From sequence record OR083247.1: a stretch of 64,000 nt of DNA. One strand, written 5' to 3'. Shown here piece by piece: positions 3,022 through 7,754 of the stretch. A program made the translations under genes and the position numbers. This DNA is from Escherichia phage Bf23. A model generated the notes under the pieces. The model searched no databases. It was not told the DNA's origin and saw nothing but the letters and a program-made list of their open reading frames with translations. How positions within the stretch are numbered: the stretch's first letter is position 1; each line of letters opens with the position of its first letter.

Positions 3022-3514
3022 TACTCCAATTATTTTTCTAGATATTGATGGGGTGCTCAACTCGAGCATCTCCCATCACCATGCACCTGATGATGAAAAG
3101 ATTTTCTTTGGAAGTGACTGGGTCTTTAAACCGCTTCTCAAGGCTTTTCAGGACTTTATTCGTCCTTCTCCAATAATGATTGTTGGGGTATCTTCATGGT
3201 TCTCTGTTAGGAATGAGGTGGAGAACGTTCAGATTATGACCGGATTAGATCTTATCGATCGTTTTCTTGGTACAACGGATTTTACTGGTGGTGGATTATC
3301 TAGAGGTAATTCTGTTCTTCGCTTCGTTGAAAAGCATAAGCTCAAACATTGGTGTGTGCTGGATGACGCTGGTGCTATGATGTACCAGTATCCAACGGTT
3401 ATAGTCAACGGTAGAACTGGAATAAATCTTCAAGATTTAAGAGCTGTTAGCTATATGCTAGAATTTAGCCCAGATCTTGAAATGTGTAAATCCTTACAAC
3501 AATTTAAGGTGTAA
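3008..3514 (+). CDS. HAD-superfamily-like putative phosphatase/hydrolase
   Basis: N-terminal IIFLDIDGVLNS resembles HAD motif I (hhhhDxDGxh). Weak call. Confidence 0.45.
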   Translation: MKISNTPIIFLDIDGVLNSSISHHHAPDDEKIFFGSDWVFKPLLKAFQDFIRPSPIMIVGVSSWFSVRNEVENVQIMTGLDLIDRFLGTTDFTGGGLSRGNSVLRFVEKHKLKHWCVLDDAGAMMYQYPTVIVNGRTGINLQDLRAVSYMLEFSPDLEMCKSLQQFKV

Positions 3515-3516
3515 AT

Positions 3517-3945
3517 ATGTTCAATAATGTATTCTCTAAAGAAGCTAACCCAATTTTGGTTAATTTTTGGCGTACTCTTCCAGCCAACCTGTACAATGAG
3601 GCTATTAATGCTCTGAAAATATGGTGTGAGAATAATGAAATCTCCTTTGCTTTTAAGGGTGAGATTGAAGAAGCTCCCTGTATTGGTTTAATTGTGCAGG
3701 TAGAGGATGGTTTGGAAGAGATTGTCGGCTGGAAAGAGTTGGATGAAATGGGGTTGGTTTTTGCATTAAACTATAAGCTATTTATGCCCAATAAACACCG
3801 TATTGTTGTTAACTATAAAACCAGTGAATCTCCGGGCTTTCAAGTTAATGAACATTACGGTTGGTCTTACTCACCGGAAGAAGTAAATGATGGTATCCAA
3901 AAACTTCGTCGTTTTGGTTATCAAATTCCGGGTTTAACCGCCTAA
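3517..3945 (+). CDS. Hypothetical protein, tandem paralogue A (142 aa)
   Basis: Shares CIG..(E)L(D)..MGL(V/I)(F/V)ALN(Y/F)(K/S)LF(M/H)P and a C-terminal ..(I/Y)(Q/V)(I)PGL block with the next ORF. Confidence 0.55.
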   Translation: MFNNVFSKEANPILVNFWRTLPANLYNEAINALKIWCENNEISFAFKGEIEEAPCIGLIVQVEDGLEEIVGWKELDEMGLVFALNYKLFMPNKHRIVVNYKTSESPGFQVNEHYGWSYSPEEVNDGIQKLRRFGYQIPGLTA

Positions 3946-3954
3946 GGGGGCACA

Positions 3955-4347
3955 ATGGAACAAGTATATTGGCGTCAGATTGATCCTAGTTTGGTGAAGC
4001 GTGCGGAGAAGCTGCTACAACGTTGGTTGGGGGTAAGACAAGCCTCCTTCACTTTTCCGGAGCAGCAAATAGACGATCCCTGTATTGGTGTTTTCCTATC
4101 AGGCTACGCTAGGGAATGGGAATTGGATTGGAATGAGTTGTCTGCTATGGGTTTAATTGTTGCACTAAATTTCTCTTTGTTCCATCCACGTGGTTTGGCC
4201 CTATGTCGTGTGCCTGATGACGGTTGTTCGCCCCATCTTTTACAGGTGGAAGATGATATTTGGGAGTACACTCCAGATATTCTCAAAGAAGCTAAAGAAC
4301 AGTTAAACCATGTTGGGATCTATGTTCCAGGCTTGAATGATGAATGA
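3955..4347 (+). CDS. Hypothetical protein, tandem paralogue B (130 aa)
   Basis: Paralogue of 3517-3945 by eye; RBS AAGGGGG upstream. Confidence 0.55.
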   Translation: MEQVYWRQIDPSLVKRAEKLLQRWLGVRQASFTFPEQQIDDPCIGVFLSGYAREWELDWNELSAMGLIVALNFSLFHPRGLALCRVPDDGCSPHLLQVEDDIWEYTPDILKEAKEQLNHVGIYVPGLNDE

Positions 4348-4370
4348 TTTTTATTAGCTGAACTCTGATT

Positions 4371-4396
4371 ACCGAGTCATTTTGGCTCGGTTTTCT
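4371..4396 (+). terminator. Rho-independent terminator
   Basis: Stem ACCGAGTC / GGCTCGGT (one G-U pair), loop ATTTT, followed by TTTTCTCTGT. Confidence 0.55.
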
Positions 4397-4438
4397 CTGT
4401 GCTTAAAGACACTGATAGCACCTTTGGGAAAAATTTAC

Positions 4439-4480
4439 TTGCATGATGCCCAAAATCTTGATATAATATTTATATTGAAT
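4439..4480 (+). promoter_or_regulatory. sigma70 early promoter with extended -10, followed by an atypically long (about 490 nt) untranslated leader
   Basis: TTGCAT (4439-4444), 17-bp spacer, TGaTATAAT (-10 at 4462-4467), family leader TATTGAATTGAGAGA. Confidence 0.6.
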
Positions 4481-4964
4481 TGAGAGACATTAGTAAAAAT
4501 TGATTTTGCTAATTTTTCTTGTTTACAATCCGCGATACGGAACAGTTAGGCTGCCCCATTAAGGGTTGTTTTAACTATTACTAGTGTTTATATTGCATTA
4601 GTTAATCTTCAATTAAGTGATCTGTGTACCCTGAATTCGGAAAGGTAAATCCAAACCGTGCATATTTAGCTCGTTATATAGGCAGAGTTTTATATGGGGG
4701 TGCGAACGAAAAGAGCAGCGAATGGCGGCACGTACAGTAGTCACCTACCAATAGGATAGTGAGGACAAATAGAATCGGCTTAGCGGCCAATGACCTAGGT
4801 TCTATTCTGTATATGAGCGAAGAGAGCACAGCACTGAGATATGATAACTTATTCATATTGTTTGATGATAATTGATGTTTACGTAAATAGTAGTAATAGT
4901 TGTTCTATTCTTTCTGAATAGTCCTAAAGAAAAGATTTCGATTAACCAACATAGGAGTATTGTT

Positions 4965-7754
4965 GTGTTTTCTATCCTCCAAGGTCACGCCGGGTTTTCT
5001 CGTGATTTAGCAACAGGTATTTGGCGAGAAATCAAAGCGGAAGATTATACCTTTGCCAAGCGATTCTCGAAAGAGCATCCAGAAGGTAAACCAGCTTCTA
5101 TGCCCTTCAAATTTGATGTAATAGAAGAGCACGACCCACAAAGCCTTGCCGAAATGTTACCCCTTATGAGACGTTTAACGTCTGATCCTCATATCGTTGC
5201 GGTACGAGGTCGATGTCTTGCACCTAAAAATAATGTGCGGCGTAAGAAAGGTAACTTTAATGTATCTAATCCTAGTAATATTATTGCTATGGACGTGGAT
5301 GGTATCCTAGATACCGGTGGGTACGACAAATTTAATCTTGTTGGTATGGCTCGCCACATTATTAAGATGTTGAATAGTATTAGTGAGGATATGTTCCCTC
5401 TTGATGCAGGCTTTATAGCTCATGCATCGTCTTCGGCTGGGCTAAAACCAGGTATCCGAATGCACTTAATGCTAGAATCTAATGTCAAGGTAACTCAGGG
5501 TCAGCTAAAGTTCTTATTTACATCTATCAACGATAGTAGTAAGCAAAAATTTGGTTTTGATATTGCCGACCTAGCTTATTATTCATCTGTCCAGCTCCAC
5601 TATTTTGCCGACCCCTTATTTAGCGATGGTATTGTTGATCCGTTTAAAGCGGAGAGTAAGCCACGTCTGGTGTATGTTAAAGGTTCGAAAGTAAATTTGC
5701 CCAATAATCTGGTTGACTATGAAACAACTAGAGGGGAGTTTAAGGAAGAGTTTTATTCCTTACTTGATCAAATTAAAGGCAAAAAGATTGCTTCTGATAA
5801 AGTAGAAGAAACCATCAGCGAGTTAGAAGAGGCTGATGATGGGGTGTATTTGCGTATTATCCCCAAACTATACCATAGAGCATTAGAGGATGGGGTTGAT
5901 TTTGCATGGCTAGAACGTGAGATTAAACCAGCTTTATCTGAATATATTGCAACTAAAGATAACAGTCGTAATATTCAAGATTACTTTAATAACGGTCGTA
6001 AGCAGGCTCTCAAAGCGTTTGTTAATAATTCTAAACGTGAGATTCCATTAAATCTGAAAGGTGTTCCACTTAAGAAATTAGAAGTGGATTCTCCACCAGA
6101 AGTTCCATACCTGAAGATTAACATTGTGCCCCCCAAAGGCCATATAACATTTGTTAAGGCAAGTCTTGGTACTGGTAAAACTACGGCAGTAACTAAATGG
6201 CTGGACGCAGGTGTTCTTCCGGGCAACTTTTTAGCAGTTACAAATACTAGAGCACTGGTATCTTCAAATGCCAAGAAATTTAGTGCAGGACAATACGATA
6301 AGTCTGTAGATATGCTCAACTTTAAACGTGGAGCTATTGATCGTATGTCCACAACTATTCACTCTTTGCATAAGTTCAAAAGTTTTATTGGGCAAATAGA
6401 CACCATTTTTATTGATGAATGTGACGCTGTAATGAATGACCTATTATTCGCCCCTGTTGTTAAACAACGTCGCGAGTGTATTCAAGTTCTACGTGACATC
6501 CTCATGACAGCTAAGACTGTAATCTTATCCGATGGTGATATTAGCGCTGAGACGATTGAAGCATATGGTTCTCTAATTGATTTTGATAAACCAGTAGCAT
6601 TTTATAATCATCACCGTAAAATGCTGTCAAAAGCACACGCTTATGAGTTCCCTGATGAATCCAGTATTTGGGTTGCACTTCAGACTTCTCTAGAGATGGG
6701 TGAGAAATCTATTCTAGTATCTGATTGTGGTCCTGATGAGCTGAATGAGAAGGGTATGGCACTACGTCGTAATACTGGTGCGTTAGTTAAGGAAATCCAT
6801 TCAAACTCTACGTCAGATGTGGATATTCGACGTATTCTGGATTATACAACTAATGAGCTAATTGATCAACAAATTGATTGCTTATTATGTAGCCCATCCG
6901 TAACGAGTGGTGTTGACTTTAACTACTTTGATAACGTATTTGTTATTACTAGAACCAGTAATCAAGCGCCAAACATGCGTTTCCAAGCAATCAGGCGCGA
7001 CCGTGGTGCTCAGAATATCTATTATTTTATTGATAAATCCACTAGTGGGTTCTCCGCAGGTTCTGAACAATATAATATTGATGAAGGTTGGCTGGAGTTA
7101 GCACAGCAATTATACGCACGTCGCAGGGAACTGGAATCCAGGAACTATACTAGTACTTTACGTTATTACTTGCTTGATCAAGGTGCAACTATTGATATTT
7201 TCAGCGAAAGCTGGGGAACTATTGAAGGTGCTGGTAAAGAGTACACAGAAGAGCGAATCAAAGCTATTCTGCATTCAACTCCAGATTATTGTGCTCCACG
7301 TCATGCGGATGCGTATGAAGCTAAACTACTTCTTGTTCGCTATTATCATCTTGAGTCTATTAAAGATGTAACAGTTGAGCATGTTGAACAATATATCAAA
7401 GATAAACCGAATGATCGAGCTGCATTCTTCCATAAGATGCACGAGATGTTTTGGGAAGATATTAAGAAGTGTTCAAACGTCACTATCAAACCATTCATAG
7501 AAGCTCTGAAAGGTAAGAAGAAAGATTTCTTCCTTAAAACAGGTCAGAGTGCTAATGCAAAATATGCTAGAATGTATCTTGGTATGATGGGCATTGGTAA
7601 AGATATGAACACGGAGAATATTGTAGACTGGTATAGAACCTATTGTAAAATCGAGTGTATGCCAATTCCTTATAAGTTCATGACTGACGAGGAAAAACAT
7701 ATGCATGATGAAGCAATGTCAGAGCTAGGTGCTAGAAATGACAGTGAAGAATAA
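4965..7754 (+). CDS. Large P-loop ATPase, putative replication-initiation/origin-binding helicase-like protein (929 aa)
   Basis: GTG start with RBS AGGAG; Walker A SLGTGKTT, Walker B-like FIDECDAV. Function inferred from motifs and its position at the head of the replication module. Confidence 0.55.
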   Translation: MFSILQGHAGFSRDLATGIWREIKAEDYTFAKRFSKEHPEGKPASMPFKFDVIEEHDPQSLAEMLPLMRRLTSDPHIVAVRGRCLAPKNNVRRKKGNFNVSNPSNIIAMDVDGILDTGGYDKFNLVGMARHIIKMLNSISEDMFPLDAGFIAHASSSAGLKPGIRMHLMLESNVKVTQGQLKFLFTSINDSSKQKFGFDIADLAYYSSVQLHYFADPLFSDGIVDPFKAESKPRLVYVKGSKVNLPNNLVDYETTRGEFKEEFYSLLDQIKGKKIASDKVEETISELEEADDGVYLRIIPKLYHRALEDGVDFAWLEREIKPALSEYIATKDNSRNIQDYFNNGRKQALKAFVNNSKREIPLNLKGVPLKKLEVDSPPEVPYLKINIVPPKGHITFVKASLGTGKTTAVTKWLDAGVLPGNFLAVTNTRALVSSNAKKFSAGQYDKSVDMLNFKRGAIDRMSTTIHSLHKFKSFIGQIDTIFIDECDAVMNDLLFAPVVKQRRECIQVLRDILMTAKTVILSDGDISAETIEAYGSLIDFDKPVAFYNHHRKMLSKAHAYEFPDESSIWVALQTSLEMGEKSILVSDCGPDELNEKGMALRRNTGALVKEIHSNSTSDVDIRRILDYTTNELIDQQIDCLLCSPSVTSGVDFNYFDNVFVITRTSNQAPNMRFQAIRRDRGAQNIYYFIDKSTSGFSAGSEQYNIDEGWLELAQQLYARRRELESRNYTSTLRYYLLDQGATIDIFSESWGTIEGAGKEYTEERIKAILHSTPDYCAPRHADAYEAKLLLVRYYHLESIKDVTVEHVEQYIKDKPNDRAAFFHKMHEMFWEDIKKCSNVTIKPFIEALKGKKKDFFLKTGQSANAKYARMYLGMMGIGKDMNTENIVDWYRTYCKIECMPIPYKFMTDEEKHMHDEAMSELGARNDSEE

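Follow-up and report, generated by a model that had tools for sequence, protein, structure and literature searches.

Genomic context of the D2 leader

The window analyzed in this study is a stretch of 64,000 nucleotides (nt) from Escherichia phage Bf23 (sequence record OR083247.1; one strand, 5' to 3'). Our subject is the interval of about 490 nt between an early promoter and the GTG start codon of the helicase gene D2, for which a structured leader, a non-coding RNA or a replication origin had been proposed from the sequence (referred to as the original prediction). The upstream gene, a homologue of T5.107, ends with its stop codon at position 4347. The leader and its flanks were 98.4% identical to Escherichia phage T5 (AY543070, 58880-59680), and the leader region also matched several hundred records of T5-like phages. 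In the T5 records this region is flanked by T5.107 and T5.108, the latter being D2 with the annotation 'putative replication origin binding protein', and the annotations inside the gap are a rho-independent terminator and the early promoter T5P32, nothing more. The gap and the promoter are already annotated in T5; a structured RNA is not. In one Salmonella phage record the gap is filled by three 'hypothetical proteins' of 38-41 codons. The leader is framed by the following features, given in window positions:

4371-4398, + strand: intrinsic terminator of the upstream operon, with a 9-base pair (bp) GC-rich stem and a T-run (found by scan at 4371-4391; annotated in T5 records)
4439-4467, + strand: strong sigma-70 early promoter T5P32 (from the sequence; annotated in two T5 GenBank records)
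4953-4967, + strand: Shine-Dalgarno (SD) sequence AGGAG (4953-4957) and GTG start codon (4965) of D2, the first start codon with a ribosome-binding site
4965-7754, + strand: D2, a 929-amino acid (aa) SF2 helicase with a UL9-like core (Herpes_ori_bp) at residues 389-533 (open reading frame (ORF) and domain match)

The promoter consists of TTGCAT (4439-4444), a 17-nt spacer and TATAAT (4462-4467), with a TG-extended -10 element (TGATATAAT, 4459-4467) and an A/T-rich tract upstream, which would place the transcript start at about 4474. A generic promoter scan missed T5P32 because its -35 hexamer matches at only three of six positions. The original prediction had nevertheless placed a promoter at 4439-4467, and rightly so: it is the annotated T5P32, and all Demerecviridae representatives examined have this promoter type at a distance of 470-800 nt upstream of D2. 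The ORF list and the ORF maps likewise bore out that about 490 nt without a credible ORF precede the GTG start of the 929-aa helicase-like gene.

Sequence conservation and allele types

In an alignment of eight phages, the ends of the leader were near-invariant (4468-4580 and about 4890-4964), whereas the middle part of ~300 nt occurred in two nearly unalignable forms of equal length, which are referred to as the T5/Stitch type and the SPC35/Gostya9/BB1 type and have GGCTTAGCGGCCA in common. The leader was matched by 441 records; 274 of these covered at least 80% of it (T5 type), and most of the others matched its ends only. When T5 was compared to an SPC35-type phage by a sliding scan, identity amounted to 80-100% in the flanks but only 32-60% in the core. 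Phages whose core DNA is only 32-60% identical share about 90% identity over the first 300 residues of D2. Within one allele type the picture was different: T5 and Stitch, which belong to different genera, were 86-100% identical in the RNA, generally above the identity of the neighboring genes (45-100%). The allele of Yersinia phage phiR2-01 is a mosaic, with a T5-like 5' half-core and a Sugarland-like 3' half-core.

Within the locus, conservation is highest at 4532-4571, which was 100% identical between T5 and SPC35-type phages. It contains the motif GCGAUACGGAACAGUUAGGCUGCCCC, which was also found in My1 and in locus L044 and, in a variant form, in Sugarland. The only elements that recurred across the alleles were the hexamer UUAGCG and some short motifs (GAGAAGUG, CAGUGUAG), and T5 lacks some of the latter.

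A weak promoter-like site (TTGATT, 18 nt, TACAAT) is located at 4500-4529, in the invariant 5' part and overlapping the 3' strand of the 5'-terminal hairpin P1. This site is not preserved in Sugarland, so the 5' part is more likely to be invariant because the hairpin is conserved. In 51 records of T5-like phages, a self-folding stem-loop module of 96 nt is inserted directly after P1, between 4518 and 4519 (for example at about 680-775 in L005 and in L007 and at about 957-1052 in L013). This module is single-copy and, in the loci examined, was found together with T5-type, SPC35-type or phiR2-01-type cores.

Predicted fold of the leader RNA

The predicted fold consists of a 5' hairpin, a conserved motif with a second hairpin, a long closing helix (P3) that encloses the hypervariable core, and a small 3' hairpin:

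4482-4520, + strand: P1, 5'-terminal hairpin of 16-19 bp with the base GAGAGA...UUUUCU (covariation)
4532-4571, + strand: conserved motif GCGAUACGGAACAGUUAGGCUGCCCC and P2 hairpin (AGGCUGCCC/GGGUUGUUU)
4572-4612, + strand: 5' strand of P3, a long AU-rich closing helix of ~40 bp (duplex energy, alignment)
4613-4861, + strand: multi-helix core of ~250 nt, hypervariable in sequence, with the same structure across alleles (covariation, identity scan)
4628-4701, + strand: P5, pairing ACCCU (4628-4632) with GGGGU (4697-4701) around a 5' sub-domain of ~60 nt (alignment)
4732-4812, + strand: three-way junction of Px (4732-4737 with 4807-4812), the Py hairpin (4740-4766) and Ha (4768-4806)
4768-4806, + strand: Ha, with a 9-bp outer stem (AAUAGAAUC/GGUUCUAUU), a 9-nt 3' bulge, a 3-bp inner stem and the hexaloop UUAGCG (4780-4785)
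4838-4859, + strand: Hb hairpin, GAUAUGA/UCAUAUU (covariation; other alleles have a UUGCC-type loop here)
4862-4902, + strand: 3' strand of P3 (duplex energy, alignment)
4905-4921, + strand: P4, a small hairpin (CUAUUC UUUCU GAAUAG) directly after P3 (alignment; CUAUC/GAUAG in Sugarland)

The core is thus predicted to contain at least six further helices inside P3, including the three-way junction and the hairpin with the invariant loop. The inverted repeat AATAGAA/TTCTATT reported in the original prediction is real (4768-4776/4798-4806) and corresponds to the outer stem of Ha; it is meaningful as a single covarying RNA stem, not as a member of a repeat family. Three copies of TTCTATTC had also been reported, but the interval holds two (at 4800 and 4903), the supposed third copy being TTCTATCC, which lies inside D2. 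This 8-mer was not over-represented in the window, where five occurrences were found and 4.2 were expected.

Compensatory covariation across alleles and genera

Covariance analysis across related phages had been named as a check of the original prediction, and it revealed extensive compensatory covariation. A MAFFT alignment of all allele types, analyzed with RNAalifold, was too poor for a consensus and was replaced by alignments within types, by hand alignment, and by iterated covariance-model alignments. For the T5/Stitch type, an alignment made without any fitting to the structure yielded 150 predicted pairs (RNAalifold), 22 of which were G.U. Seven pairs differed on both sides between T5 and Stitch, about ten carried G.U-compatible single changes, and no predicted pair of this type was broken except for two mismatches that each occurred in a single sequence. 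In P1, compensatory changes affected 9 of the 19 pairs (MAFFT-only alignment of seven sequences from five genera). The P3 duplex comprised 30-47 pairs, including 3-11 G.U pairs, in seven of nine allele types, with energy z-scores of -4.5 to -9 and none of 300 shuffled sequences as good; the segment rule used for P3 failed for the metagenomic type L068, in which a 19-bp helix is visible by eye.

Inside P3, the inner stem of Ha that closes the UUAGCG loop reads GGC/GCC in T5, AGC/GCU in phiR2-01, GAC/GUC in My1, and GCC/GGU in Stubb, and the outer stem of 8-9 bp differs in sequence in every type. For 8 of 11 representatives, anchored searches retrieved Ha with p ≤ 0.015. In a hand alignment of 13 sequences, which was fitted to the structure and in which pair scoring covers the Ha part only, 98.6% of the cells were paired and 10 of the 12 pairs showed double changes; the covariation score was 0.88 compared to 0.20 for shuffles (none of 500 reached the observed value) and at most 0.13 for slid partners. 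All 12 representatives searched contained Px, directly 3' of Ha and around a Py hairpin of 30-39 nt; between T5 and Stitch, Px changed from A-U to C-G. The P5 variants read across types were AUCCU/GGGAU in phiR2-01, UCCCGU/ACGGGA in SPC35, and UGCCGU/ACGGCA in L068. Hb, in which six of the seven pairs of helix 7 carried compensatory changes, covaried between types as did P5. Finally, a covariance-model alignment of 14 sequences, which leans towards the model by construction, had 90.9% of its cells paired and double changes in 31 of 35 pairs, with a covariation score of 0.72 compared to 0.25 for shuffles (0 of 500 reached it) and at most 0.13 for slid partners. A lack of conserved structure, which would have spoken against an RNA, was therefore not observed, as nearly every helix showed compensatory changes.

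Coding potential and strand

The interval is non-coding. Its two ATG ORFs (4694-4759, 21 aa, and 4841-4921, 26 aa) are not conserved, and the ORF maps of ten alleles revealed no common ORF or frame. Two GTG ORFs of 38 codons in T5 are missing from the 93%-identical Stitch allele, and a minus-strand ATG ORF of 60 codons is reduced in Stitch to 38 codons with a TTG start. A short ORF in the invariant 5' part starts with TTG at 4519; no purine-rich ribosome-binding site is visible before this codon, and the ORFs of at least 25 codons in Sugarland and L044 use other frames. A gene for a small protein or leader peptide was thus rejected, as the ORFs differ between alleles and no frame with a ribosome-binding site is conserved. 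The conserved translated small ORF that the original prediction had considered as a competing outcome was accordingly not found.

The + strand folded more stably than its complement, by 13-50 kcal/mol, in eight of nine representatives, and its z-scores were more negative than those of the - strand in six of the nine. G.U pairs are mismatches in a DNA cruciform or in an antisense RNA. On the - strand, the scan of 4200-5200 detected no promoter-like site. The preferential folding of the + strand, the many G.U pairs, and the lack of a minus-strand promoter indicate that the functional molecule is the rightward transcript.

Distribution in the family and covariance-model searches

Covariance models were built in three rounds. 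Model R1, which covered the 134-nt junction domain and was based on T5-type sequences only, ranked the phiR2-01 and SPC35-type sites first (E = 0.1-0.5). With model R2, based on the T5, SPC35, and phiR2-01 types, Sugarland was matched with E = 2e-6, and L068, L044, and My1 with E = 0.009-0.016; each of these matches was the top match of its locus, on the + strand, and in the syntenic position. Model R3, based on the 14-sequence alignment (A10), matched Providencia at the correct site with E = 0.8, and Proteus and Vibrio remained without a match. We conclude that the leader RNA is present in Tequintavirus, Epseptimavirus, Sugarlandvirus, and My1-like phages. It is probably also present in the Providencia and Proteus phages, which have the UUAGCG hairpin and the junction geometry in common. 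The Vibrio leaders may be regarded as analogous to the T5 leader, judging by their position and evolutionary pattern. The ORF-free gap or leader before D2 was 598 nt long in Sugarland, 590 nt in My1, 711 nt in Providencia PSTCR5, 712 nt in phiR2-01, about 760 nt in Proteus Stubb, about 520 nt in the metagenomic type L068, and about 650-740 nt in the Vibrio phages. Two loci with distant D2 homologues (L053 and L071, 43-45% identity) had no such leader.

The Proteus phages Stubb and PM135 (L046, L047) contain consensus sigma-70 promoters at 701-729 and 1435-1464. One of this pair precedes a structured RNA of ~700 nt and the other is located 66 nt before the start of D2. Hence, translation of D2 does not have to depend on the long leader in these phages, and a separate promoter serves the RNA. 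In the Vibrio Thalassavirus loci L056 and L059 (about 730-1400), ends conserved at 96-98% surround an island of 500 nt with 30-56% identity, as in T5. These Vibrio leaders, and those of L014, L057, L058, and L060, are purine-rich and are located behind a consensus promoter and before a D2 homologue.

A search of window positions 3500-6000 against Rfam 15 (E ≤ 10) gave no match to the RNA body, and thus none to families such as the group I and II introns, RNase P or 6S RNA. The two weak matches that touched the interval were to snoRNA models (16 bits, compared to gathering thresholds of 36-43) and lay over the terminator and the promoter. In nine relatives (E ≤ 5) only terminator look-alikes were matched, and a scan for tRNA and tmRNA found none. 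The leader RNA belongs to no Rfam family, and we regard it as a new RNA family. A search of the literature available to us retrieved no published description of the leader RNA, of a T5 transcript map, or of a mapped origin.

A proposed self-contained RNA module in the D2 leader

Taken together, the data indicate that the 490-nt interval encodes a conserved structured RNA, to which we assign a probability of about 0.9. Compensatory changes preserve its architecture in the different alleles and genera of enterobacterial Demerecviridae, with hardly any constraint on the primary sequence of the core. The reading as a structured leader or non-coding RNA is thus strongly supported by the covariation, the homologues found by the models, the fold of the + strand, and the lack of a conserved ORF.

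Under the mechanism that we propose, the D2 transcript would begin with the large, autonomously folding RNA (~490 nt), read rightward from the early promoter. No intrinsic terminator was found after 4391, and thus none between the RNA and D2. In partition function calculations for eight alleles, the predicted accessibility of the SD sequence and start codon did not differ between the complete leader and the segment that follows P3. According to this model, P3 thermodynamically insulates the core from the ribosome-binding site. The domain thus behaves unlike a simple translational switch and would be a self-contained RNA module rather than a switch that hides the start site. Helices of at least two turns that are formed by flanking sequences are the classical substrates of RNase III in E. 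coli, as exemplified by the rRNA stalks, the early sites of phage T7, and the lambda N leader. P3 has the geometry of such a stalk, being an intramolecular helix of at least about 20 bp formed by distant flanking segments, and RNase III cleavage in P3 is therefore the most likely processing step. The cut would release a stable structured RNA of ~300 nt, and the D2 mRNA would then begin at the 3' strand of P3 and the P4 hairpin. The UUAGCG hairpin would be the best candidate for a protein-docking site, with D2, another early protein or a host protein as possible ligands. The constant position directly upstream of D2 argues for a role linked to the replication module, and the sharply bounded, mosaic core, hypervariable yet isostructural, suggests a role in specificity or in an arms race, or as a target or decoy in a conflict. 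The full scenario of an autonomous, RNase III-released, and protein-binding module is, at best, somewhat more probable than improbable.

Several points weigh against this interpretation. In T5, the RNA is not followed by a terminator and is thus, in physical terms, a leader, which would be compatible with a purely cis-acting role. RNase III cleavage and the release of a stable RNA are predictions from the geometry of the helix. The two structure-fitted alignments (the Ha hand alignment and the 14-sequence model alignment) inflate the pair counts; the slid controls and the unfitted alignments (T5/Stitch type and P1) are in agreement with both. Lineages have many of the compensatory changes in common, so that the independent events are fewer than the cells counted. 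Moreover, model R3 did not establish statistically that the leaders of the Providencia, Proteus, and Vibrio phages are homologous to this RNA.

Alternative explanations

The RNA might stay part of the D2 mRNA and act purely in cis, tuning D2 or the entire replication operon downstream: through binding of a protein or metabolite (operator or riboswitch), through processive antitermination of the HK022 put or EAR kind, in which RNA polymerase is modified, or through stabilization of the mRNA. We consider this possible but, on balance, unlikely. The location between the promoter and the D2 ribosome-binding site, with no terminator in between, and the same position before D2 in all genera fit such a role, as does the higher conservation of the 5' 100 nt compared to the neighboring genes, and the invariant hairpin loop could be an operator. 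However, no expression platform was found, neither a terminator/antiterminator nor a change in SD and start codon accessibility upon removal of the domain, and a riboswitch or SD-sequestering leader was therefore rejected despite the location in the 5' untranslated region (UTR). Few nucleotides are conserved across the alleles, which would be unusual for a riboswitch core, and no Rfam riboswitch or leader family matched. With ~400 nt and more than eight helices, the RNA is also far larger than known operators (put comprises about 70 nt and EAR about 120 nt), and in the Proteus phages a consensus promoter separates it from D2. A further possibility is that the core, once excised from the D2 leader, belongs to a previously undescribed class of large functional RNAs, be it as a ribozyme or as the RNA component of a ribonucleoprotein, and acts in T5 DNA replication or in conflicts of phages with hosts or with other phages. 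It could, for example, prime replication or load the D2 helicase, or its allelic types could set specificity in the manner of plasmid incompatibility groups. We regard this idea as tentative and unlikely.

A replication origin, as also envisaged by the original prediction, is not supported: the leader contains no iterons or repeated protein-binding sites, the GC skew does not turn here, and the DNA is hypervariable while RNA pairing is kept. The skew changes from positive to negative at about 26 kb, probably where gene orientation changes from the early to the late block. A 9-mer at 4700-4708 (GTGCGAACG), which we take to be the reverse complement of the box I core (CGTTCGCAC) bound by UL9 of herpes simplex virus (HSV), occurs in the T5-type and phiR2-01 alleles and is absent from the SPC35-type and other alleles; its presence beside a UL9-like helicase gene is probably a coincidence. 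With no iterons and this single 9-mer in some alleles only, a DNA origin bound by an initiator, of the HSV oriS/UL9 or lambda ori/O type, is likewise unsupported. Replication might still start from the transcript, with a structured pre-primer like ColE1 RNA II or an R-loop like that at T4 oriF priming the leading strand beside D2. A strong promoter without an ORF next to a UL9-like helicase gene would suit this purpose, ColE1 RNA II is likewise a structured RNA (~550 nt) whose fold is important, and incompatibility-like divergence would account for the isostructural alleles. The locus is located near the middle of the T5 genome (59.0 of 121.75 kb). D2 has been proposed as a replication initiator by the authors of PMC3632103, a paper that also cites one report of multiple internal origins observed by electron microscopy. 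The strand bias of recombitrons suggests mainly unidirectional replication from one end (PMC10055335). We consider an origin that depends on the transcript quite improbable, as no antisense promoter was found in addition to the missing iterons and skew switch, the UL9-like 9-mer is not shared by all alleles, and selection acts on RNA pairing, including G.U pairs, rather than on the DNA sequence.

That the interval encodes no functional RNA at all, being a fast-evolving spacer, the relic of an inverted-repeat mobile element, or a region coding for small proteins, is scarcely credible. The core is indeed hypervariable with sharp boundaries and flanked by an inverted repeat of 18 nt, homing endonuclease genes occur nearby, and some annotators have called small ORFs here. 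This explanation is contradicted by the compensatory changes in nearly every helix, by the conservation of the T5 and Stitch alleles above that of the flanking genes, and by the lack of an ORF or frame common to the alleles. In addition, 8-11 of about 45 pairs of the closing helix are G.U and would be mismatches in DNA. A mobile element resembling miniature inverted-repeat transposable elements was rejected because all genera have a single copy at the same site, P3 is not flanked by a visible target-site duplication, the repeats tolerate G.U, and the interior covaries.

Comparison with known systems and significance

By analogy, the T5 leader would work most like a structured RNA that is bounded by an RNase III stalk and embedded in an early phage transcript. 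It shares with the known stalks a long helix (~40 bp here) formed by sequences that flank a folded RNA, and it is part of an early transcript made by the host polymerase in an E. coli-type host, directly before a coding region. It differs in that the enclosed RNA is a multi-helix domain of ~250 nt instead of rRNA or a simple hairpin, and that cleavage is predicted only. Like the ROOL, GOLLD, and HEARO-like RNAs, the T5 RNA is hundreds of nt long, phage-borne, and of orphan function, with many covarying helices. However, it has no covariance-model match to any of these, is fixed as the leader of a helicase gene and not located near tRNAs, and has divergent core alleles in near-identical phages. 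ColE1 RNA II/RNA I offers the parallel of a structured transcript of ~500 nt that starts at a strong promoter within a replication module and keeps its structure while the sequence splits into 'types', but no antisense promoter was found for the T5 leader and its transcript runs on into a protein gene. The herpesvirus oriS and oriL resemble the locus in the adjacent UL9-family helicase gene and the one 9-mer similar to box I; the T5 leader lacks palindromic boxes and an AT spacer between boxes, and the 9-mer is not conserved. Riboswitches, T-boxes, HK022 put, and EAR also are 5' UTR elements right after a promoter with a conserved secondary structure, whereas the T5 RNA is much larger and has no expression platform, few invariant nucleotides, and no Rfam match.

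Large complex RNAs are rare in bacteria and phages, and many of those with a known function are ribozymes or ribonucleoprotein cores. T5 has served as a model phage since the 1940s, but we know of no established account of how its replication starts or how D2 is controlled. An RNA of ~400 nt and ribozyme-scale complexity directly upstream of a putative initiator helicase is a new, testable component of the replication module. Near-identical phages with unalignable yet alike-folding cores also provide a natural experiment in RNA structural constraint. As annotators leave the region blank or add spurious small ORFs, a covariance model would correct these annotations.

Neighboring genes

D2 itself has been biochemically characterized as a bipolar SF2 helicase (PMC3632103). 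Its likeness to herpesvirus UL9 is confined to the helicase core (residues 389-533) and does not include the DNA-binding domain. Residues 1-390 (window positions 4965-6134) had no Pfam domain match; for this N-terminal region, a large protein search yielded two partial homologues, compared to 905 phage records found by tblastn. Upstream of the leader, a putative homing endonuclease gene replaces the T5.107 homologue in BB1 (L009, 102-554) and in loci L016, L026, L027, and L039, which have another promoter (TTGCAAGGGAG...TATAAT); L027 contains both kinds of promoter in tandem. In the window, the two genes directly upstream of the leader (3517-3942 and 3955-4344) are paralogues, each of which matches DUF7415 (Pfam, E = 1e-31 to 3e-33).

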